Of a DNA stretch of 64,000 nucleotides, positions 7,323 to 42,754 are shown piece after piece. The notes beneath the pieces are model-generated. The model was not told where the DNA came from, did no database searches, and was given only the letters and a program-made list of their open reading frames with translations. Positions within the stretch are counted from its first letter, which is position 1; every line of letters starts with the position of its first letter. A program made the position numbers and the translations under genes. This DNA comes from Chloroflexota bacterium. Its GTDB lineage: Bacteria; Chloroflexota; Limnocylindria; Limnocylindrales; CSP1-4. The DNA lies in the NCBI GenBank assembly GCA_030447745.1, contig JAUJOH010000010.1:35374-99373 (forward strand), written 5' to 3'.

Positions 7323-8168
7323 CTACGACGGGAGGAGCTCGATCTTCTGCCGGACCAGGTCCCAGAACGGCTGGGCTCCCGCCGGCTCGATCAGGCGGAT
7401 CGGCCGGTCGACCGCCTGGACCTCCACGACGTCCCCCACCTCGAGCGGCAGATCCTCGCGCCCGTCGATGCTGATCAGCGCCTCGTGCGCGTCGACGACA
7501 CGGCACCGGACGACCTGCTCCGGCCCCACCACGACGGACCGGATCGCCGACAGATACCCGGCGATGGGCGTGACGACCAGGTTGCGCGCCGACGGGTCGA
7601 CGATCGGGCCACCGGCCGAGAAGGAGTAGCCGGTCGAGCCGGTGGGGCTGGCGACGACGAGGCCGTCCGCGATGAACGTCGCGAGATGGCTGCGCCCGAT
7701 CGTCACGTCGAGCCGGCACACGCGCGCGAGCGCACCCCGCGCGACGACGACGTCGTTGAGCGCCGTGTGGAAGACGCCGCCGCCGTCGCGCCCGCCGGGC
7801 AGGATCCGGGCGGAGAGCGTCATCCGCTCCGCGAGCGAGAAGCGGCCGCCGGCCAGCTTGTCCAGGACACCCTCGAGCTCCTCTGCCTCGGCCTTCGAGA
7901 GGAACCCGACCTTGCCGAGGTTGATCCCGAGCAGGGGCACGTCGACCGTCGCGACGGCTCGGGCCGCACGAAGGAACGTGCCGTCGCCGCCCAGGACGAC
8001 GAGCAGGTCCGTCGTCGGGAGGTGGCCCGTGAGCGCGTCGAAGTCACCGGCCTGCGCGGACCAGTGGTCGATCCCGCGCCGGCGGCACCAGCCGGCGGCG
8101 CGCTCACCGAGGTCGACGGCCGCCTCGTTCGTCGGGTTGTAGGCGAAGCCGAGCCGGTGCACGGTCAC
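7323..8168 (-). CDS. nadK: NAD kinase
   Basis: GGDGTFL, NLGKVGFL and DGLVVASPTGSTGYSFSAGGPIV motifs. GTG at 8168 overlaps the tlyA stop as GTGA. Confidence 0.85.
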   Translation of the reverse strand: MTVHRLGFAYNPTNEAAVDLGERAAGWCRRRGIDHWSAQAGDFDALTGHLPTTDLLVVLGGDGTFLRAARAVATVDVPLLGINLGKVGFLSKAEAEELEGVLDKLAGGRFSLAERMTLSARILPGGRDGGGVFHTALNDVVVARGALARVCRLDVTIGRSHLATFIADGLVVASPTGSTGYSFSAGGPIVDPSARNLVVTPIAGYLSAIRSVVVGPEQVVRCRVVDAHEALISIDGREDLPLEVGDVVEVQAVDRPIRLIEPAGAQPFWDLVRQKIELLPS

Positions 8169-8998
8169 CCCCCGGTCGCCGCGGCCAGGCACGCCTCGAG
8201 ATCCGGCATTCCGGCGCCGGTCGCGAACCAGGCCAGGAACTCGCGGTTCCCCTCGGGACCGAGGATCGGCGACGGGATGACGCCGCGGGTGCTGAGGCCG
8301 ATCCCGTCGGCCTGCCCCACCACCCTGTCGAGCACCGCCCGGTGCGCCGCGGGGTCGCGGACGACCCCGCCCCGGGCCTCGCCCCTGCCAACCTCGAACT
8401 GGGGCTTGACCAGGACGACGATCCGGACCGCGTTCTCGCGGAACGTCGACGCGATCGGCGCGAGCACGAGCCCGAGCGAGATGAACGACACGTCGACGAC
8501 GGCGAGATCGATCGGCTCGGGCAGCGTCTGCGCGGTCAGTCCCCGCGCGTTCACGCGCTCCATCGAGATGACCCGTTCGTGGCGGCGGAGCGCTTCCGCG
8601 AGCTGGCCGCGGCCCACGTCGACGGCATAGACGCGAGCGGCGCCCCGCTGGAGCAGCACATCCGTGAACCCGCCGGTCGAGGCGCCAACGTCCAGGCAGG
8701 TCCAGCCGACGGGTTCGATGCCGAACGCGTCGAGCGCGGCCGCCAGCTTGTGCCCGCCTCGCGAGACGTACGGCTCGCGCTCCACGACGGTGACCGACGT
8801 CCCGGCCTCGAGCAGGTCGCCCGGCTTCCGATCGGTCCGCGCGCCGTCGCCCTCGCCGACCCGCACCTTGCCGGCCAGCACGAGGGCCTGCGCCCGAGCC
8901 CGCGACTCGACCAGCCCGCGCTCTACGAGGAGCTGGTCCAGGCGCTGGCGTGACGGTCTCGGTGTGCTCGCCCGGCTCACGCGGCTATCGTGGCACAC
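8165..8998 (-). CDS. tlyA: TlyA-family rRNA 2'-O-methyltransferase / hemolysin
   Basis: N-terminal S4 domain (RLDQLLVERGL) and FtsJ-like methyltransferase (LDVGASTGGFTDVLL). Confidence 0.8.
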   Translation of the reverse strand: MCHDSRVSRASTPRPSRQRLDQLLVERGLVESRARAQALVLAGKVRVGEGDGARTDRKPGDLLEAGTSVTVVEREPYVSRGGHKLAAALDAFGIEPVGWTCLDVGASTGGFTDVLLQRGAARVYAVDVGRGQLAEALRRHERVISMERVNARGLTAQTLPEPIDLAVVDVSFISLGLVLAPIASTFRENAVRIVVLVKPQFEVGRGEARGGVVRDPAAHRAVLDRVVGQADGIGLSTRGVIPSPILGPEGNREFLAWFATGAGMPDLEACLAAATGG

Positions 8999-34338: not shown

Positions 34339-35310
34339 TCAGCCGGACGCCGCGGCCGGCACGGACGGCCGGAGCCGACCGAGCGGCACGGTGGCGACGG
34401 CAATCCCGCCGACGACGAGGCACACACCGATCAGCTGCGCGATCGACGGCGCTTCGCCGAGGAGCACCATCGCCAGCGCGACCGTGGCGACGGGCTGCGC
34501 GAGCAGGATGATCGAGGTCAGGACGGCGGGCAGGCGCGGGAGCGACAGCGAGATCAACAGGTAGCCGAGGGACTGCGACGTGACGCCGTAGGCAAGGAGC
34601 CAGGCGTGCTCGGGCCACGTGACGGCGAGCTGCAGCTCGCCGAGCGGTGCGCCGACGGCCCCCGCGACGAGCGCCGTCGAGAGCGTGGCCACGGCCACCG
34701 GTCCCGCCGGCCGCCGCGCGTCGCGCCCGCTGCGCCGGATCACGAGCAGGTAGCCCGCGTAGCTGAACGCCGTGGCCACGCCGAGGACCACCCCGAGGGC
34801 CGGATTCTCCCCGTACGCGTTCGCGTCGATCAGCCCTGAGATCAGGACGATGCCGACGAGGACGACCGGCAGCGCCACGAGGATCGCCCGGGACGGCCGC
34901 TCCCGGAAGACGAGCCACGCGACGAGTCCGACGACCAGGACCTGCAGGTTGGCGAGCACGGTCGCCAGGCCGGCGCCGACGTGCTCGATGGCGTGGTGCC
35001 AGAACGTCAGGTCCGCGGCGAAGAACCCGCCGGCCACGGTCGCCAGCGCCACCGTCCGCCGGTCGAGGCCGCCGTGCCGGCGGTGCTCGAGCCAGGCCAC
35101 GAGCGCCAGGAGCGGCAGGCCGTACAGGCACCGGAAGACGGTCGCCGTGGCGGGCGGGACGTCGCTGTAGCGGTAGAAGATCCCGGAGAACGCGATGCAC
35201 ATCGCCCCGAGCAGCGCCGACAGCCGGGGGCGCGCCGCGAGCGCGGCGAGGACGGCCGGTCCGCGATCCTCCTCCCGATCCGCCCCGCCGGCGGACCCGG
35301 GAGCGGTCAC
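34339..35310 (-). CDS. EamA/DMT-superfamily transporter
   Basis: Ten predicted TM helices and two EamA repeats. GTG at 35310 forms GTGA with the aspS stop. Confidence 0.7.
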   Translation of the reverse strand: MTAPGSAGGADREEDRGPAVLAALAARPRLSALLGAMCIAFSGIFYRYSDVPPATATVFRCLYGLPLLALVAWLEHRRHGGLDRRTVALATVAGGFFAADLTFWHHAIEHVGAGLATVLANLQVLVVGLVAWLVFRERPSRAILVALPVVLVGIVLISGLIDANAYGENPALGVVLGVATAFSYAGYLLVIRRSGRDARRPAGPVAVATLSTALVAGAVGAPLGELQLAVTWPEHAWLLAYGVTSQSLGYLLISLSLPRLPAVLTSIILLAQPVATVALAMVLLGEAPSIAQLIGVCLVVGGIAVATVPLGRLRPSVPAAASG

Positions 35311-37217
35311 GGCCTCGGCTGCGATTCGGACGCCGCCGGTATCGTGGCCCCGGTGGAGCGCGGCGTGCCCACGAACCGCAGCCCGAGCTCTGCGTACTGC
35401 TCGGGGGCCGGCGGAGCAGGTGCCTCGAGCATCGGGTCGGCCCCCGACTGGGTCTTCGGGAACGCCATCACCTCGCGGATGTTCGTCTGGTAGGCCAACA
35501 GCGCCGCCCAGCGATCGATCCCGAGCGCGATGCCACCGTGGGGCGGCGCGCCGTACTCGAACGCCTCGAGCACGGCGCCGAACCGCTCGTGCATCTGCTC
35601 GATGCTGTAGCCCTGGAGCCCGAAGCTTCGCTCGAGGAGGTCCCGGCGGTGGATCCGGACAGAGCCGCCGCCGAGCTCCCAGCCGTTGAGCACCACGTCG
35701 TACTGAAGCGCACGCGCCTGACCGGCGGCGTCCTCCGGCGACGGCCTGGCCGGGTCGCCGGACTTCGTCACGAGCAGCGGCTCGTCCTCCGGCACGACAT
35801 CGCTGAACGGGTTGTGGGTCGCGTCCCACCGGCCACCCTCGGCGTCCCACTGGTACATCGGAAAACGGTGAACCCAGCAGTAGGCCAGGACATCCGGGTC
35901 GGCCACGCCGAGCCGCCCGGCCAGCTCGACCCGCAGGCGCCCCAGCACGTCGCTCGTGGTGTCGGCGTCGTCGGCGACCATCAGGATCAGGTCGCCCTCC
36001 GCGGCACCGGTGCGCTCCGCGATCGCGGCGGTGCGCTCGTCGCCGAGGAACTTCGCGATCGGCGACCGGATCGCGCTGCCCGGCTCGACCGCGGCCCACG
36101 CCAGCCCCTTCGCGCCGAACCGCCGCGCTGTCTCGGTCAGGTCGTCGATCTCTCGGCGCGTTGCGCCGCCCATGCCGCGCGCAACGATGGCCTTGACCCG
36201 CCCGCCGCCGGTGAGTGCCTCGTCGAAGACGCGGAACCCGGACGCGGGCGTTCCCTCGTCGTCCACCAGCGCCGGCGCGAGGTCGACGAGCTCCATCCCG
36301 TAGCGGAGATCCGGCTTGTCCGAGCCGAACCGCTCCATCGCCTCCTCGTACGTGAGGCGCGGGAACGGCGCGTCCTGGATCGGGCGCTCGGGCGTCGTCG
36401 CCCTCGAGACCTCGACCACCATCCACTCGGCGAAGTCCATGACCGCCGCCTCGTCGACGAAGCTCATCTCCAGATCGAGCTGTGTGAACTCCGGCTGCCG
36501 ATCGCCCCGGAGATCCTCATCGCGGTAGCACCGGGCGATCTGGAAGTAGCGGTCGATCCCGCCCACCATGAGGATCTGCTTGAGCTGCTGTGGGCTCTGG
36601 GGCAGCGCATAGACGGTTCCCGGCTGGAGCCGCGACGGGACGATGAAGTCGCGCGCGCCCTCCGGGGTGGACTTGATGAGGGTCGGCGTCTCGACCTCGA
36701 TGAAGCCGCTGGCGTGGTGCACCTCGCGGATCGCCTGCACGAGCCGGCTCCTCAGGAGGAGCCTCCGCTGCATCGCCTCGCGGCGGATGTCGAGGTAGCG
36801 GTACTTGAGGCGGAGCGTCTCGTCGATCGGCGCGTCCGGGTCGTTGACGTAGAACGGCGGCGTGCGCGCCTCGTTGAGGACGGTCACGTGCGTGGCGCGC
36901 AGCTCCACGTCCCCGGTCGGAAGTCGCGGATTCTCCGTCCCGGGCAGCCGGCGCGCCACGCGGCCGCGGAGGCCGAGCACGAACTCGTTGCGGACGCGAC
37001 TCGCCGTGGCGTGCGCGGCCGGCTGATCCGTACGGTCGACCACGACCTGGGTGATGCCGTGCCGGTCTCGGACGTCGAGGAAGATCAGCTGGCCGTGGTC
37101 GCGACGCCGGTGGACCCAGCCGGCGAGCGAGGCCTCCGAGCCTTCGTCGTCGACGCGCAGCTCGCCGCACGTGTGGCTCCGGAAGGGCGTGGCGAGGCTC
37201 GGCGCGGGGTCGGTCAT
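35307..37217 (-). CDS. aspS: Aspartate--tRNA ligase
   Basis: 636 aa from ATG 37217: OB anticodon-binding domain, class II motifs (FRDEDLRGDRQPEFTQLD, GGGSVRIH, PPHGGIALGIDRW) and a GAD insert. Confidence 0.9.
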   Translation of the reverse strand: MTDPAPSLATPFRSHTCGELRVDDEGSEASLAGWVHRRRDHGQLIFLDVRDRHGITQVVVDRTDQPAAHATASRVRNEFVLGLRGRVARRLPGTENPRLPTGDVELRATHVTVLNEARTPPFYVNDPDAPIDETLRLKYRYLDIRREAMQRRLLLRSRLVQAIREVHHASGFIEVETPTLIKSTPEGARDFIVPSRLQPGTVYALPQSPQQLKQILMVGGIDRYFQIARCYRDEDLRGDRQPEFTQLDLEMSFVDEAAVMDFAEWMVVEVSRATTPERPIQDAPFPRLTYEEAMERFGSDKPDLRYGMELVDLAPALVDDEGTPASGFRVFDEALTGGGRVKAIVARGMGGATRREIDDLTETARRFGAKGLAWAAVEPGSAIRSPIAKFLGDERTAAIAERTGAAEGDLILMVADDADTTSDVLGRLRVELAGRLGVADPDVLAYCWVHRFPMYQWDAEGGRWDATHNPFSDVVPEDEPLLVTKSGDPARPSPEDAAGQARALQYDVVLNGWELGGGSVRIHRRDLLERSFGLQGYSIEQMHERFGAVLEAFEYGAPPHGGIALGIDRWAALLAYQTNIREVMAFPKTQSGADPMLEAPAPPAPEQYAELGLRFVGTPRSTGATIPAASESQPRP

Positions 37218-37261
37218 GGCCGCCGTATCGTACGGGAGCCAACCGGGTGGGCCGAGCCGAG

Positions 37262-38539
37262 TCAGGCGACCGTGGCCTTGCGGCGAAGCAGTGCCGGCAG
37301 GTCCGCCAGCGGCACCGGCTTCTGCGACGCCGCCCCCAGGTCGCGCAGCTGGACGAGCCCGTCGGCCAGCTCGTCGCCGACGATCACCGCGAAGCGCGCG
37401 CCCTCGCGCACGGCCGCCTCGAGCTGCCGGCCGAGCTTCCGCTGCGCGAGATCGGCACGGACGGACAGGCCGCCCGCGCGGAGCTCCGTGGCGATGCGGA
37501 GCCGGGCTGCCGTGGCGCCGGGCTCCGCGCCGACAACGACGGCCAGCGGGACGGGTTCCGTGACCGAATCGGCGCCCTGCGCCTCGAGCGCGAGCACGAC
37601 CCGATCCAGCCCGATCCCGAACCCGATGCCCGGCGTCGGCCGGCCGCCGAGCCGCTCCACGAGCCCGTCGTAGCGACCGCCGCCGCCGAGCGCCGACTGC
37701 GTTCCCCGGGCACCGACCGGAAAGAACTCCCAGGCAGTCCGGACGTAGTAGTCGAGCCCGCGGACGAGCCGCGCGTCGACGACGTAGCGGATCCCGAGCG
37801 CGTCGAGGTGCGCGCGGACCTCGCCGAAGTGCGCGGCGCACTCGGCGCACAGCCGATCGGTGATGGTCGGGGCATCGGCGTTCAGCTCGACCATGGCCGG
37901 TTCCTTCGAGTCCAGCAGCCGGAGGGGGTTGCGCTCGAGGCGCTGGCGCTCGAGCGCCGGGAGCCGGTGGATCCGGGCCCGGTAGAACGCGGCGAGGGCC
38001 TCGACGTAGGCCGGGCGGCAGGCCTCGTCGCCGATCGAGTTGACGTAGGCATCCGGCGGGTTGAGGCCGGCCTCCGCGTAGAAGCGGAACGCGAGCTCGA
38101 TCAGCTCCGCGTCGACCGCGGGCCCCGGATCGCCGAAGACCTCCACGTCGAACTGCCAGAACTGCCGGTAGCGGCCCGCCTGCGGCCGGTCGTAGCGGAA
38201 CATCGGCCCGGTCGTGGTGAGACGCACCGGCTGCGGCCACGTCTGCATGCCGTGCTGCACATACGCCCGGACGAGCCCGGCGGTCGGCTCGGGTCGGAGC
38301 GCCCATGTCTCGCCTTCCCCGGAGCGCGGCGCCAGCCGGAACAGCTCCTTCTCGACGACGTCGGTCGCCTCGCCCACGCCGCGCTCGAAGACGCCCGTCT
38401 GCTCGAAGAGCGGCGTCTCGATCGGGCGGAAGCCGTACCGGGCGGCGAGCTCGGCGGCGATCCGCTCGAGCCTGACGAACGCGGTCCGCTCCGGCGGGAG
38501 AAGGTCGCGCGTGCCGCGCGGGGCGCGGAAGCTGGGCAT
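37262..38539 (-). CDS. hisS: Histidine--tRNA ligase
   Basis: 425 aa from MPSFRAPRGTRDLLP: class II motifs (FRYDRPQAGRYRQFWQFDVEVFG, GGGRYDGL) and a C-terminal anticodon-binding domain. Confidence 0.9.
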   Translation of the reverse strand: MPSFRAPRGTRDLLPPERTAFVRLERIAAELAARYGFRPIETPLFEQTGVFERGVGEATDVVEKELFRLAPRSGEGETWALRPEPTAGLVRAYVQHGMQTWPQPVRLTTTGPMFRYDRPQAGRYRQFWQFDVEVFGDPGPAVDAELIELAFRFYAEAGLNPPDAYVNSIGDEACRPAYVEALAAFYRARIHRLPALERQRLERNPLRLLDSKEPAMVELNADAPTITDRLCAECAAHFGEVRAHLDALGIRYVVDARLVRGLDYYVRTAWEFFPVGARGTQSALGGGGRYDGLVERLGGRPTPGIGFGIGLDRVVLALEAQGADSVTEPVPLAVVVGAEPGATAARLRIATELRAGGLSVRADLAQRKLGRQLEAAVREGARFAVIVGDELADGLVQLRDLGAASQKPVPLADLPALLRRKATVA

Positions 38540-38541
38540 CG

Positions 38542-40791
38542 CTACCCGAGGTCGCGCTGGACCGAAAGAACGTCCTTCAGCTGTTCGATCCGGCCCATCA
38601 CCCGCGCCAGCTGGGCGACCGAGGCGACCTGCAGCGTCGCGGTCACGATCGCCGTGTGGTCCGGGTTCACGTTGACCGATGCGGCGAGGATGTTGACCCT
38701 GTTCTCCGCCACGACCTGGGTGATGTCGTTCAGCAAGCCGGTCCGGTCGTAGGCCTCGACCCGGATGGCGATCGGGTACGTCGCGGCCGGAGCCGCCTCC
38801 CACTCGACGTCGATGAGCCGCGACACCTCGCGCTCGTTGATGACCGTCGGGCAGGAGTGCAGGTGGACGGTGACGCCCTTGCCGCGCGTGATGAAGCCGA
38901 CGATCGGGTCGCCCGGGATGGGGTGGCAGCACTTGGCGAACCGGACGAGCAGGTCACCGACGCCCTTGACGCGCACGCCGCCGGTCCGGGCCGGGACGCT
39001 GGACGGGGCGACCGTCGGCAGCGCCGTCTGCCCGTCGTCGACGACGCCCAGCCGCATGACGACCTGCTGGGCGGAGATGGCGCCGTAGCCGATGGCAGCG
39101 AAGAAGTCGTCCGCCTGCTCGAAGTTGTAGAGCCGCGCGGTCTCCGCGATCCGGTCGTGCCCGACCGCACCGACGTTCGTCCGTGCCAGCCGACGGAGCT
39201 CCCGCTCGAGCGCCTCGCGGCCGTGGACGATGTTCTCGTCACGGTCCTTGCGCTTGAACCACTGGCGGATCTTTTCGCGGGCGTGCGAGGTGCGGACGAC
39301 GTTCATCCAGTCGCGCGACGGGCCGTGCTCGCCCTTGGTCGTCACGATCTCGACGATGTCGCCGTTCTTGAGCCGGTAGTCGAGCGGAACGAGCCGGTTG
39401 TTGACCTTGGCGCCGATCGTCCGGTGCCCGACGTCCGTGTGGATCCGGTACGCGAAGTCGAGCGGGGTGGCGCCGGCCGGCAGGTCCTTGATGTCGCCCT
39501 TCGGCGTGAACACGAAGACCTGGTCCTGGAAGATGTCGAGCTTGATGCCCTCGACGAACTCGGTGGCGTCGGAGACGTCCCGCTGCCAGTCCATCAGCTG
39601 GCGGAGCCAGGCCAGCTTCGCGTCGTACTCGCGGTCAGACTTCGAGCCTTCCTTGTACCGCCAGTGAGCCGCGATGCCGACCTCGGACACCTGGTGCATC
39701 TGGTGCGTCCGGATCTGGATCTCGAGCGGCTTGCCGTCGAGCGCGATCACGGCCGTGTGGAGCGACTGGTAGAGGTTGTTCTTGGGGACCGCGATGTAGT
39801 CGTCGAACTGACCCGGGATCGGCCGCCACAGGGCGTGGACGATGCCGAGCGCGGCGTAGCAGTCCCGGACGTCCTCGACCAGGATCCGGATCGCATAGAC
39901 GTCGTAGATCTCGCCGAACTCGGCGGACTTGCGCTGCATCTTCTTGAAGATGCTGTAGATGTGCTTCGGCCGGCCCTGCAGGTCCGCCTGGATGCCGGCC
40001 TGCTTGAGCCGGGGCTCGAGCTCCGCGATCGCGCGCTCGATGTAGCCCTCGCGGCCATGACGCCGCGTGTCGAGCAGGCGGGCCAGCTCGCGGAAGCGCT
40101 GCGGCTCCAGGATCTTGAAGGCGAGGTCCTCGAGCTCCCACTTCATCTGCCAGATCCCGAGCCGCTCGGCAAGCGGCGCGTAGATCTCCATCGTCTGGCG
40201 CGCGATCCGGAGCTGCTTCTCCGACGGCAGGGCGTACAGCGTCCGCATGTTGTGGAGGCGGTCGGCCAGCTTGATGAGGACGACCCGGATGTCCTCGGCC
40301 ATGGCCAGCAGCATCTTCCGGATGTTCTCCGCCTGCTGCTGCTCGTGGCTGTGCGTGCTGAACTTCGAGAGCTTGGTGACGCCGTCGACGAGCCGCGCGA
40401 CCTCGCCGCCGAACCGCTCCTCGACGTCGCTCAGGCTGTACTCGGTGTCCTCGGGAACGTCGTGCAGAAGCGCGGCGAGGACGGCCACCGGGTCAATCCC
40501 GAGGTCCGCGAGGATCTGCGCCGAGGCGATCGGGTGGGTGACGTACGGCTCCCCGGAGGACCGCTTCTGCGAGGCGTGGGCATCGACGGCGAGGTCGAAC
40601 GCACGGCCGACCGGCTCGAGATCGACCTGCGGGTAGTGACTCGCGAGCGTCGCGAGCAGGTGCTGGCGAAGGGCCGCGATGTCGACGGCCTCGCCCGGCC
40701 GCAGGGGGGCTGGGCGCGCCGGCGTCAGCGAGCGCCGAGGCCCGCGACGGGGCGGGGCGGTCTCGGCGGGCTTGGTGCGCGGTGTGGCCAT
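38542..40791 (-). CDS. rel: Bifunctional (p)ppGpp synthetase/hydrolase Rel
   Basis: 749 aa from ATG 40791: HD hydrolase domain (HDVPEDT), synthetase domain (RELARLLDT...YQSLHT), TGS, and ACT-like C-terminus. Confidence 0.9.
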   Translation of the reverse strand: MATPRTKPAETAPPRRGPRRSLTPARPAPLRPGEAVDIAALRQHLLATLASHYPQVDLEPVGRAFDLAVDAHASQKRSSGEPYVTHPIASAQILADLGIDPVAVLAALLHDVPEDTEYSLSDVEERFGGEVARLVDGVTKLSKFSTHSHEQQQAENIRKMLLAMAEDIRVVLIKLADRLHNMRTLYALPSEKQLRIARQTMEIYAPLAERLGIWQMKWELEDLAFKILEPQRFRELARLLDTRRHGREGYIERAIAELEPRLKQAGIQADLQGRPKHIYSIFKKMQRKSAEFGEIYDVYAIRILVEDVRDCYAALGIVHALWRPIPGQFDDYIAVPKNNLYQSLHTAVIALDGKPLEIQIRTHQMHQVSEVGIAAHWRYKEGSKSDREYDAKLAWLRQLMDWQRDVSDATEFVEGIKLDIFQDQVFVFTPKGDIKDLPAGATPLDFAYRIHTDVGHRTIGAKVNNRLVPLDYRLKNGDIVEIVTTKGEHGPSRDWMNVVRTSHAREKIRQWFKRKDRDENIVHGREALERELRRLARTNVGAVGHDRIAETARLYNFEQADDFFAAIGYGAISAQQVVMRLGVVDDGQTALPTVAPSSVPARTGGVRVKGVGDLLVRFAKCCHPIPGDPIVGFITRGKGVTVHLHSCPTVINEREVSRLIDVEWEAAPAATYPIAIRVEAYDRTGLLNDITQVVAENRVNILAASVNVNPDHTAIVTATLQVASVAQLARVMGRIEQLKDVLSVQRDLG

Positions 40792-40900
40792 CGTGCTCGG
40801 GAGGATAGCAGCGCCCTTGGCCCTCGCCCGCGGGGGCGTCGGCGGGCCTGGCTGGGACGCGACGCTCCGCGGGCCGGGTTGGGAGGCCGCGGCGCCGCTG

Positions 40901-41093
40901 TTGGACCGCTGCCGCGGGCGTGTGGGCCGGCCATCCCGGGGTCGGGCCCCGTGGCGGCCGGCGAACCCAACGGGCGTGTGGGCCGGCCATCCTGGCCCGG
41001 ATCGGGCCAGCGTGGCGTGGACCGCCGGCGCCGTCCGTCCAAGGGTCTCACCGGCTCGCCGGTGGTCGGTTGGACCGCTGGCGAACCCACGGG
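40901..41093. repeat. Mosaic short direct repeats (11-22 bp units, ~56-bp period) in the rel upstream region
   Basis: cgggcgtgtgggccggccatcc at 40915-40936 and 40971-40992; ttggaccgctg at 40901 and 41070; gcgaacccaacggg / gcgaacccacggg at 40961 and 41081. Confidence 0.6.
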
Positions 41094-41244
41094 CCGTCAG
41101 GACTTGAACTGCTGCGGGTGGATCGGGCACGACAACCCAGATGGCCTCACCGGCTCGTACTCCGTGAATGAGCAACTACCACGACACGTACATCAGCGAG
41201 GGGCGGAGGCAACTCGGGGTCTAGGTTTCGAGATCCGGATCCAC

Positions 41245-41343
41245 GACCAGTACTTCTTCAACTTCGTCGGGAGGTGGAACACCAACCTTCCGTGGACGGG
41301 GCAGGCAGAGAGCGAGAACGCCGCGGAGGAGCTTCAGCAGGGC
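41245..41343. repeat. ~97-bp direct repeat, copy 1 (includes the 3' end of a small ORF ending TAA at 41376)
   Basis: gaccagtacttcttcaacttcgtcgggaggtggaacaccaaccttccgtggacggggcaggcagagagcgagaacgccgcggaggagcttcagcagggc; about 92% identical to copy 2. Confidence 0.7.
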
Positions 41344-41606
41344 TACACGGAAATCGCGGGAGCCGCGAGACATTAACGTGGCAGATTGGGCCGCGCACTA
41401 CACCGAGATTGAGTGGTGGCGTGGCCTGCAGCTACGACGTCACCGGAAGCTTCGGGAAGGGCAGTGAGTGACCGCGGGGGACCCGGGCGCCGCCCGTCGC
41501 GCTTATCGTCGCGGGCCTGGTCGCTTTCGTGACGACATACGCGGTGCGCGCGGCTCACGCGCGTCCGCCGCGATGAGCATCGCGCAATGGTGGGGGCGCC
41601 CGGGCC

Positions 41607-41705
41607 GACCAGTACTTCTTCAACTCCGTCGGGAGGTGGAACACCAACCTTGCGTGGACTGGGCAGGCGGAGAGCGAGAACGCCGCCGAGGAGCGTCCGC
41701 AGGGC
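41607..41705. repeat. ~97-bp direct repeat, copy 2
   Basis: gaccagtacttcttcaactccgtcgggaggtggaacaccaaccttgcgtggactgggcaggcggagagcgagaacgccgccgaggagcgtccgcagggc, 362 bp downstream of copy 1. Both encode ...DQYFFN(F/S)VGRWNTNL(P/A)WTGQAESENAAEE... in one frame. Confidence 0.7.
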
Positions 41706-42049
41706 CATGAGAAAGTCCCCACTGGTGGCGTCGCCGGTCGCCACACGAGGCGACCGTTCGTTTCACCTGCCCACGGCCGTGGTAGCGGGCGCACAAACCG
41801 CTTCAGCCAGCAACCACGCCCGCTCGATGAAACGGACGAGCCGATGCGAGACCCGGGTTGGGCTCACACGAGGCACGTCGCGGCGAGAACACGGCGACGT
41901 GGCACTTCGCGTGCCACGGGGGTTGGTGGATGAACAAAACCGCACGGCGGCGCGGCTCCCGACCGGGACGTAACGCCGGATCACCTTGAGTGGCGTTTCC
42001 TTGGACCGGACGGATCCGTCATTCAGAAAGGCGAAGGCATTCTCGCAGC

Positions 42050-42754
42050 CTACGGCGCCATCCCGGCCAGGTCGATCTCGCCGGTCAGGACCAGCGCGTC
42101 GTCGACCACCGTCGCGGAGGTGAACCGCAGCGGATCGGCGGGGACCAGCCCGACGCGTGGGCTGCCCGGCACGTTGAGCGCCATCGAAAGCGCGCCGTCC
42201 GGCTCCACGACGATGCGGCCCTCGACCCGGACGAGGAAGAGGTTGAACACGAGACGATCCGGCGCCTGGAGCGAGGCGGACCCGCCGGTGATCCCGGTCT
42301 GCGCCTCCAGCCCGGCGAGCGCCGCCCGCTCGACCTCCGCGGCGGGGATGCGGATCGTTGCTTCGACCGCGTCCGGCGGTCCGACGAGATCCACTCGCTC
42401 GGCCTCGATCGAGGAGCCGCCGGCCGTCCGCAGCGTCACGCCGTCGAGCCGGCCCTCGAGGCCGGCGACCGTTCGCGACTCGAGCTCACCGTCGAGCAGC
42501 ACGAGCTCGACCCGGCGCGCCTGCAGCTGGCCGAACGACACGTCCTCGGAGTCGATCTCGAGGCGGTCTGCGTGCCCGCCGATCAGCTCCCACGGCGGGT
42601 CGGACGCCACGCGGACGGTCGTTCCGGTGCCGCGAAGGCCTGCCGTGGCGAGCGATCCCTCGACCAGCCTGCCCGCGATGCCGGGCCCACCCAGCAACGC
42701 CGCGACGGCAACCAGCAGCGCGACGACACCCGTCAGCGAGACGATGCTGCACAT
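42050..42754 (-). CDS. Hypothetical membrane-anchored protein (N-terminal TM; possibly DUF2993/LmeA-like)
   Basis: MCSIVSLTGVVALLVAVAALLGG, then a 200-aa soluble domain with no recognised catalytic motif. Confidence 0.45.
   Translation of the reverse strand: MCSIVSLTGVVALLVAVAALLGGPGIAGRLVEGSLATAGLRGTGTTVRVASDPPWELIGGHADRLEIDSEDVSFGQLQARRVELVLLDGELESRTVAGLEGRLDGVTLRTAGGSSIEAERVDLVGPPDAVEATIRIPAAEVERAALAGLEAQTGITGGSASLQAPDRLVFNLFLVRVEGRIVVEPDGALSMALNVPGSPRVGLVPADPLRFTSATVVDDALVLTGEIDLAGMAP

Follow-up and report, generated by a model that had tools for sequence, protein, structure and literature searches.

A probable fossil of a horizontally acquired gene upstream of rel in a Limnocylindria genome

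The DNA analysed here is a 64-kb window (the whole stretch of 64,000 nucleotides, from a Limnocylindria genome) in which an odd "intergenic" stretch of 1.2 kb lies between the stringent-response gene rel and the neighbouring gene p234. We conclude that this stretch is very probably the fossil of horizontally acquired DNA, holding a decayed and partly duplicated gene, rather than an RNA regulator or a small gene in working order. Its homology to a protein family, the collinear map of the gene fragments, the disruptions between them, the absence of the DNA from related genomes and the null signal for RNA structure are direct observations. An earlier reading of the letters alone (the sequence-only reading) had described the region as non-coding; it holds instead a pseudogene on the plus strand, divergent from rel.

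A lineage-specific insert between p234 and rel

As the sequence-only reading had it, rel starts with an ATG at 40791-40789 on the minus strand, and the next minus-strand gene has its stop at 42050. That gene, p234 (42050-42754, minus strand), encodes a 234-aa hypothetical protein, and the gap between it and rel is 1,258 bp. A Rel-based scan of GTDB species genomes returned 80 loci (L001-L080), all of them from metagenome-assembled genomes (MAGs) of Candidatus Limnocylindria/Chloroflexota, with Rel identities of 69-89%. The gene order in these loci is murE, p234 (in about 30 of the 80) and rel on a single strand, with rel in nearly all cases within a few hundred base pairs at most of p234 or murE. 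The closest relatives, reached through p234, are GCA_010104135.1 and GCA_013695255.1 (p234 69% identical, Rel of 749 aa), where the gap between p234 and rel measures 102 bp and 100 bp, respectively; it is 100-102 bp across L081-L087.

Comparison with L081 and L084 by blastn places the synteny breakpoints at window positions 40828 and 42050, and synteny with the annotated L081 identifies the flanking genes as rel/hisS and p234/murE. About 65 nt of the closest relatives are replaced here by 1,221 nt. The insert (40829-42049, no strand assigned) thus lies between the p234 stop codon and the conserved promoter-proximal 37 nt of rel; it has no blastn similarity to any related locus and is absent from 87 related rel loci. 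A blastn search with the whole insert against phage and plasmid collections gave no meaningful match: a 30-nt segment (41700-41729) matches unannotated sites on eight plasmids of Rhodococcus/Gordonia with 97-100% identity (E = 8e-3), probably by chance. Searches for tRNA/tmRNA genes and for tandem repeats also found nothing.

Collinear fragments of a single gene

Neither Pfam nor NCBIfam matched the peptide open reading frames (ORFs) or the minus-strand ORF of the insert, and a word-indexed search of 5.8 billion protein clusters with a 70-aa ORF (GTG 41164 to TAA 41376) also returned nothing. The latter was a false negative, overturned by phmmer. The peptide search of protein databases that the sequence-only reading had proposed, run with phmmer against 1.84 billion representatives and with window 41101-41373 (plus strand) as the query, recovered 7 related proteins (best E = 3.5e-14). 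The possibility that the repeat has no homologues, named in that reading as grounds for dismissing its proposal, falls away because homologues exist. A profile built from the 7 proteins gathered 39 clusters, mostly of 200-229 aa (among them P0019, P0021, P0022, P0026 and P0028-P0061, with members of about 212 aa), all annotated as hypothetical and without a Pfam domain.

A profile hidden Markov model built from 33 full-length family members was compared with the six-frame translation of 40600-42300 using hmmsearch, and the matching pieces lie on the plus strand in the order of the family protein. Fragment 1 (41053-41175, frame 1) covers profile positions 23-62 and ends in NCCGWIGHDNPDGLTGSYSVNE; it scores 29.4 bits (E = 2.9e-11) and is also supported by tblastn with P0019 and with the L092 protein. 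It is followed in frame 2 by a weak remnant of profile positions 64-70 (HDTYISE, 41180-41200), which 11 of 500 shuffles match in score but which is collinear with its neighbours; we infer its identity, and its frame implies a frameshift just past fragment 1. Fragment 2 (41206-41355, frame 1, EATRGLGFEIRIHDQYFFNFVGRWNTNLPWTGQAESENAAEELQQGYTEI), covering profile positions 98-147 at 73.0 bits (E = 1.4e-24), is 71-73% identical to P0039/P0041/P0042 and holds the first copy of a repeated unit described below. A premature in-frame TAA (41374-41376, frame 1) stands six codons past profile position 147.

Two further weak remnants lie beyond this stop codon, both from the profile search and evaluated with shuffles. 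The first (ADWAAHYTEIEW, with HYTEIEW; 41381-41416, frame 2) corresponds to profile positions 177-188, and the second (ACSYDVTGSFGK, with CSYDVTGSFGK; 41424-41459, frame 0) to positions 195-206, where the counterpart in P0023 is ISCNWDVTGVFYK. Neither is significant singly, but both together occur in 0 of 1000 shuffles of 41356-41480. A TGA (41465-41467) after the last collinear piece occupies the position of the natural stop of the family. Profile positions 71-97 and 148-176 are deleted, and there are at least three frame changes among the collinear pieces; with pieces in three frames, the region holds no single uninterrupted ORF of 200-229 codons.

Several conserved features of the family are missing. 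Upstream of profile position 23 the frame is Arg/Gly/Pro-rich, with no hydrophobic helix that could serve as the N-terminal anchor and no start codon in context, and the family profile finds no match in 40829-41052. In P0032 numbering, deletions have removed the segments that carry the invariant residues E71-D78 and E151-Y164, and the region around C190 has gone as well. The equivalents of P127, E139, E140 and E147 are present in repeat copy 1, with P127 and E147 lost in copy 2. A further remnant of profile positions 55-110 was considered past copy 2 (41718-41870, FVSPAHGRGSGRTNRF...PLDETDE, by comparison with P0021) and is not supported, given a tblastn E of 0.89 and 36 of 500 shuffles that do as well.

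Frame 1 of the pseudogene is continuous with an open frame of 906 codons (38656-41376, plus strand), which runs antisense to rel and is a high-GC artefact. Gene callers probably failed to report the fragment as a protein because its frame is fused to this spurious ORF.

A duplicated internal segment

The ~97-bp direct repeats noticed in the sequence-only reading are real. They measure 100 nt each (41244-41343 and 41606-41705), are 93% identical and are spaced 362 nt apart; in the 64-kb window there are just two exact occurrences of their 42-nt core, against 0 expected by chance. Further copies, for which that reading had suggested a search, were not found in the window by tblastn or blastn; a degenerate 33-nt DNA pattern for the repeat core (FFNxVGRWNTN) gave 0 matches in GTDB genomes and 0 in JGI metagenomes. 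Both copies do encode DQYFFN(F/S)VGRWNTNL(P/A)WTGQAESENAAEE, each in a different plus-strand frame. Within the units the G+C fraction at third codon positions (GC3) is 0.90, compared with 0.40-0.57 at the other two positions, a periodicity absent from the flanks; this is a coding signature. The unit had been taken for a conserved peptide tail but corresponds to an internal segment, profile positions 110-147 of 211. The idea of a duplicated small gene or gene tail accordingly survives in that the unit derives from coding sequence, but what was duplicated is an internal piece of a deleted and frameshifted pseudogene.

The second copy forms an extra fragment out of order with the rest (profile positions 110-147; 41604-41717, frame 0; 31.1 bits, E = 8.7e-12), in which the family-invariant P (NLAW) and T/E (GHEK) have been lost. 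Seven mismatches separate the copies (T/C, C/G, G/T, A/G, G/C, T/G and A/C). The statement that half of the substitutions are synonymous did not hold up: over 99 aligned coding bases, 3 of the 7 are synonymous and 4 non-synonymous, which is not significant (synonymous-site fraction in the repeat alignment 0.19; binomial P ~0.13). Compared with 33 family members, copy 1 has the family state and copy 2 the derived state at 6 of 8 differing amino-acid positions (F/S, P/A, L/R, Y/H, T/E and E/K), the other two positions being ambiguous. At three of these the family is nearly or wholly uniform, with P in 33/33 members (A in copy 2), E in 33/33 (K in copy 2) and T in 31/33 (E in copy 2). Copy 2 is thus the secondary, drifted duplicate, since copy 1 keeps the family state. 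Copy 1 was either constrained until recently or has merely had less time to decay.

Two direct repeats of about 100 nt that lie a few hundred base pairs apart, one of them near the end of an ORF, could also be the product of a dedicated element, such as a diversity-generating retroelement (DGR), a gene-tail duplication by an integrative element, a miniature inverted-repeat transposable element (MITE) or an insertion sequence (IS), and the intact homologues do reside in mobile or variable islands. This origin is very unlikely, as no reverse transcriptase, integrase or transposase is present in or beside the 1.2 kb and the ORFs of the insert have no Pfam match. A DGR was rejected because the mismatches are not adenine-specific in either direction. 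Duplication of an attachment (att) site was rejected because the repeat comes from inside a gene and does not form the 3' end of an intact target, and an IS or MITE was rejected because terminal inverted or direct repeats are absent at 40829/42049 and no other copies turned up in the window or, with the 33-nt pattern, in GTDB genomes and JGI metagenomes. The proposal of a mobile-element scar in the sequence-only reading therefore stands in so far as the whole 1.2 kb is left over from DNA that none of the relatives has, but not in its implication of a transposable element, for which terminal inverted repeats, a target-site duplication, other copies and a transposase or integrase are all lacking.

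The source is a metagenome-derived contig, and we considered whether the insert or its repeat might be an assembly artefact, produced by chimeric joining or by the collapse or expansion of a repeat. A duplicate made by the assembler is unlikely, because the copies have diverged by 7% (7 of 100 positions) and are set in wholly unrelated flanks. Both junctions also fall within a single long contig that is perfectly syntenic to either side of them, and the deletions of 25-29 codons and the order of the fragments are patterns of biological decay and not of homopolymer errors. An artefact thus has very little probability.

The putative rel promoter and the case for an RNA

The motif GCTGCTATCCT (40802..40812, minus strand) lies 10 nt upstream of the rel ATG and outside the insert. 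Among 16 Limnocylindria loci inspected, 13 have the pattern GCTGCTA(T/G)(C/A)CT at a distance of 8-10 nt before the rel start codon (L001, L006, L024, L036, L081, L084 and others). It is likely to be an extended -10 element, which would make rel nearly leaderless. The insert would be excluded from the rel transcript, because a -10-like motif 10 nt from the ATG suggests a near-leaderless mRNA.

The sequence-only reading had also proposed a structured regulatory RNA or leader for rel. Such an RNA would be either a long 5' leader of rel or a small RNA, and the repeat in it a duplicated RNA module. The setting invites such a proposal, in that a long stretch without a called gene immediately precedes a gene of the stringent response, and 41100-41780 folds on the minus strand with z = -2.1, a value from only 20 shuffles. 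For the units themselves, neither strand folds better than its shuffles (z = +0.16 to +1.44), and Rfam returned only FMN, whose 17.2 bits (E = 0.96) fall short of the gathering threshold of 66.2. The insert sequence is conserved in none of the 87 related rel loci, and three-base periodicity together with protein homology fully explains the unit. We give the RNA explanation next to no weight, and the region loses one candidate regulatory RNA of rel.

Does the fragment still encode a working protein?

The 70-aa ORF that contains fragment 2 could in principle be a working small-protein gene, possibly duplicated, with copy 2 as a decaying paralogue; it would have been domesticated from the most conserved core of the family and would be transcribed divergently from rel. 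Its core is well preserved (71-73% identity to intact homologues), the GC3 of the unit is 0.90, copy 1 holds the family consensus at every informative difference between the copies, and a same-strand terminator-like hairpin lies downstream. The ORF lacks, however, the membrane anchor and 3-4 of the ~10 beta-strands of the family model, including the invariant E71, E74, P75 and D78. No Shine-Dalgarno-like sequence precedes GTG 41164, no sigma-70-like promoter was found, and no counterpart of the short form exists among 15 billion predicted proteins. C-terminal pieces persist in other frames past the stop codon, as expected for decay and not for a trimmed gene. Copy 2 has no start codon, and none occurs between it and the preceding stop. 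Such a mini-protein, whether viewed as a duplicated gene or as a domesticated core, is unlikely. A similarly small chance attaches to the broader idea that the relic is not entirely dead, acting either through the mini-protein or through a divergent transcript that interferes with, or couples to, the rel promoter ~350 nt away.

The parental family and its three-gene cassette

The parental family has no match in PADLOC, PHROGs, NCBIfam or PDB sequences. An AlphaFold2 model of the member P0032 (33-sequence alignment, mean pLDDT 93) shows a helix at the N-terminus (residues 4-30) and, after it, an all-beta sandwich; the family protein is predicted to be anchored by an N-terminal membrane helix and to expose its beta-sandwich outside the cytoplasm. 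The invariant residues of the family are E71, E74, P75, D78, P127, E139, E140, E147, E151, Y164, E188, C190 and D200 (P0032 numbering). Comparison of the model with a viral structure library gave nothing convincing.

Intact family genes always follow a conserved gene of ~300 aa, with stop and start codons overlapping, and usually precede a third gene, so that the family gene forms the middle of a cassette in the order up (~300 aa), fam (~212 aa) and dn (a membrane protein of 135-208 aa). The up gene was found in 19 family loci and the dn gene in 10. The up product is a secreted protein with a signal peptide, and the dn product is a small polytopic membrane protein. Profiles of up and dn found nothing above shuffles in the insert, and neither partner gene is detectable there. 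Cassettes were located in L088 (7102-9199), L090 (6935-9143), L091 (7048-9097), L092 (2709-5007), L096 (438-2398) and L097 (2516-4071). In L095 (7733-8621) the up gene falls into two frames that overlap (7733-8431 and 8352-8621), and only a 60-aa ORF was called; the near-identical L096 has an intact up gene of 296 aa, and the L095 locus represents either a decaying cassette or a sequencing frameshift.

The carriers are soil metagenomes of Actinomycetota and Chloroflexota, one of them a Thermoleophilaceae MAG, and the family accounts for only 39 clusters among 5.8 billion. The cassettes lie in variable genomic islands, where their neighbours include a phage-type integrase, Abi genes, RHS toxins, Cas1, SLFN/AlbA and methylases. 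A scan of JGI metagenomes yielded 11 family loci, none adjoining rel or murE, and a scan of viral contigs with the family profile found none. Family genes have 52-56% GC within loci of 63-67% GC, about 10 points below the host, and the window fragments are similarly offset. The new biology lies in this parental cassette, outside the window. It appears to be a rare, mobile envelope module, as yet wholly uncharacterised, that is carried by soil Actinomycetota and Chloroflexota, and it could merit characterisation.

Other features of the insert and its neighbours

The description of the region as GC-poorer applies to 41053-41467 and 41604-41717 (63-64%, compared with 72% for the window) but not to 40829-41052, which at 81% is GC-richer. 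The short-repeat mosaic seen in the sequence-only reading exceeds chance: its longest exact repeat is 22 nt, compared with a maximum of 14 in 500 dinucleotide shuffles, and it holds 13 repeated 12-mers where the same shuffles average 0.07. It comprises the direct-repeat families D3, D6, D7 and D8 (40900..41097, plus strand), lies in the 81% GC stretch and overlaps the start of the pseudogene; several direct repeats of 15-25 nt fall between 40900 and 41160. We read the mosaic as debris of local slippage or duplication.

Directly after the pseudogene stop is a hydrophobic stretch (APPVALIVAGLVAFVTTYAV; 41496..41555, plus strand, frame 0), which may be the relic of a transmembrane helix, from either the downstream cassette gene or a second copy of the gene. 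Its similarity is generic to hydrophobic sequence, with 7 of 500 shuffles as good against the dn profile and 15 of 500 against the family N-terminus. The segment is bracketed by a 13-nt inverted repeat (41482-41494, CCCGGGCGCCGCC; 41592-41604, GGGGGCGCCCGGG), the right arm of which directly adjoins repeat copy 2 at its start; this inverted repeat may mark a recombination junction or have arisen by chance in GC-rich DNA. Terminator-like hairpins occur at 41735..41756 (plus strand, with a T-rich tail, just past copy 2) and at 41939..41951 (minus strand, with a T-run, ~100 nt downstream of the p234 stop). Both are consensus matches only, and the two sites compare with 0.6 +/- 0.9 in shuffles.

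The neighbouring p234 evolves very fast, being 27-37% identical where Rel is 80-89% identical. It is detectable in only ~30 of the 80 related loci, has a hydrophobic N-terminus and has no Pfam or NCBIfam match. Elsewhere in the window, the ORF of aspartyl-tRNA synthetase (AspRS; 35307-38306, minus strand) stays open for ~370 codons upstream of the conserved AspRS start. The extension is rich in Arg, Ala, Gly and Pro, overlaps the hisS region and is probably a spurious high-GC extension and not a real N-terminal domain.

Proposed origin and decay of the insert

The horizontal origin of the insert, the order of events and the loss of function we infer from the observations above. An ancestor of this Limnocylindria genome would have received, between p234 and the rel promoter, foreign DNA with the middle gene of the rare three-gene cassette at the least. 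The gene would then have decayed, mostly by deletion, until its N-terminal anchor and both partner genes were no longer recognisable. Local illegitimate recombination or slippage may have copied an internal piece of ~100 nt (profile positions 110-147) to a site 362 nt downstream, and the same kind of process may have produced the short-repeat mosaic on the 5' side. The downstream copy would later have drifted from the family consensus. No part of the insert needs to have a function in this scheme, as rel would retain its own promoter-proximal motif outside the insert.

Some findings weigh against a simple fossil of acquired DNA. There is no mobility gene, terminal inverted repeat or target-site duplication at the ends of the insert, and ~560 nt of it have no recognisable homology (40829-41052, 41468-41603 and 41718-42049). 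Identity between the central fragment and intact homologues (71-73%) is no lower than among the homologues themselves, and its GC3 is strong; either inactivation was recent or the central piece is still constrained. Decaying acquired DNA provides an explanation for the odd stretch upstream of rel. As a pseudogene relic it is ordinary in kind, if scrambled to an unusual degree. The case also illustrates how gene fossils that escape k-mer-indexed searches and gene callers can be recognised by three-base GC periodicity combined with an exhaustive profile search.

Comparison with known systems

The window copy has significant similarity to the unannotated ~212-aa family in two segments (73 bits over profile positions 98-147 and 29 bits over 23-62), and shares with it the motifs CCGWIG.DNPDG..GSYS, RIHDQ.YYNF, NTNLPW and ENE..EE..QGYTE, together with traces of EIEW and C..D.TG. 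Unlike intact members it is out of frame, and ~40% of the protein is missing from it, as are the membrane anchor, a number of invariant residues and the two partner genes. It is derived from this family but is not a functional member of it.

The best Foldseek matches of the P0032 model are Ig-like/CnaB-type domains of Gram-positive pilins and adhesins (PDB 8beg, 5dza, 3kpt and 4hss; probability 0.93-0.99), which are likewise extracytoplasmic all-beta sandwiches. TM-scores of 0.25-0.40, an rmsd of 5-12 Å and identities of 4-11% indicate generic fold resemblance and not membership. Unlike pilins and adhesins, family proteins have no sortase signal and consist of a single domain with an N-terminal anchor.

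The arrangement of two ~100-nt direct repeats a few hundred base pairs apart, one of them inside an ORF, recalls the template repeat/variable repeat (TR/VR) pair of a DGR. In contrast to such a pair, the unit here does not form a C-type lectin or Ig variable region that closes an intact gene, and no reverse transcriptase accompanies it.

The closest parallel is with bacterial pseudogenes and relics of horizontally acquired genes, for which fast loss and a deletional bias are established (PMC2916853, PMC2817411 and PMC6054270). Like them, the pseudogene upstream of rel consists of collinear fragments that have intact homologues elsewhere and are broken up by multi-codon deletions, by frameshifts and by a premature stop; relatives lack it at the syntenic site, and its base composition is unlike that of its host. 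It departs from them in its dispersed internal duplication of 100 nt, its mosaic of 15-25-nt repeats and its unannotated parent family. Because the relic holds an internal duplication and a repeat mosaic, decay here has not been purely deletional.

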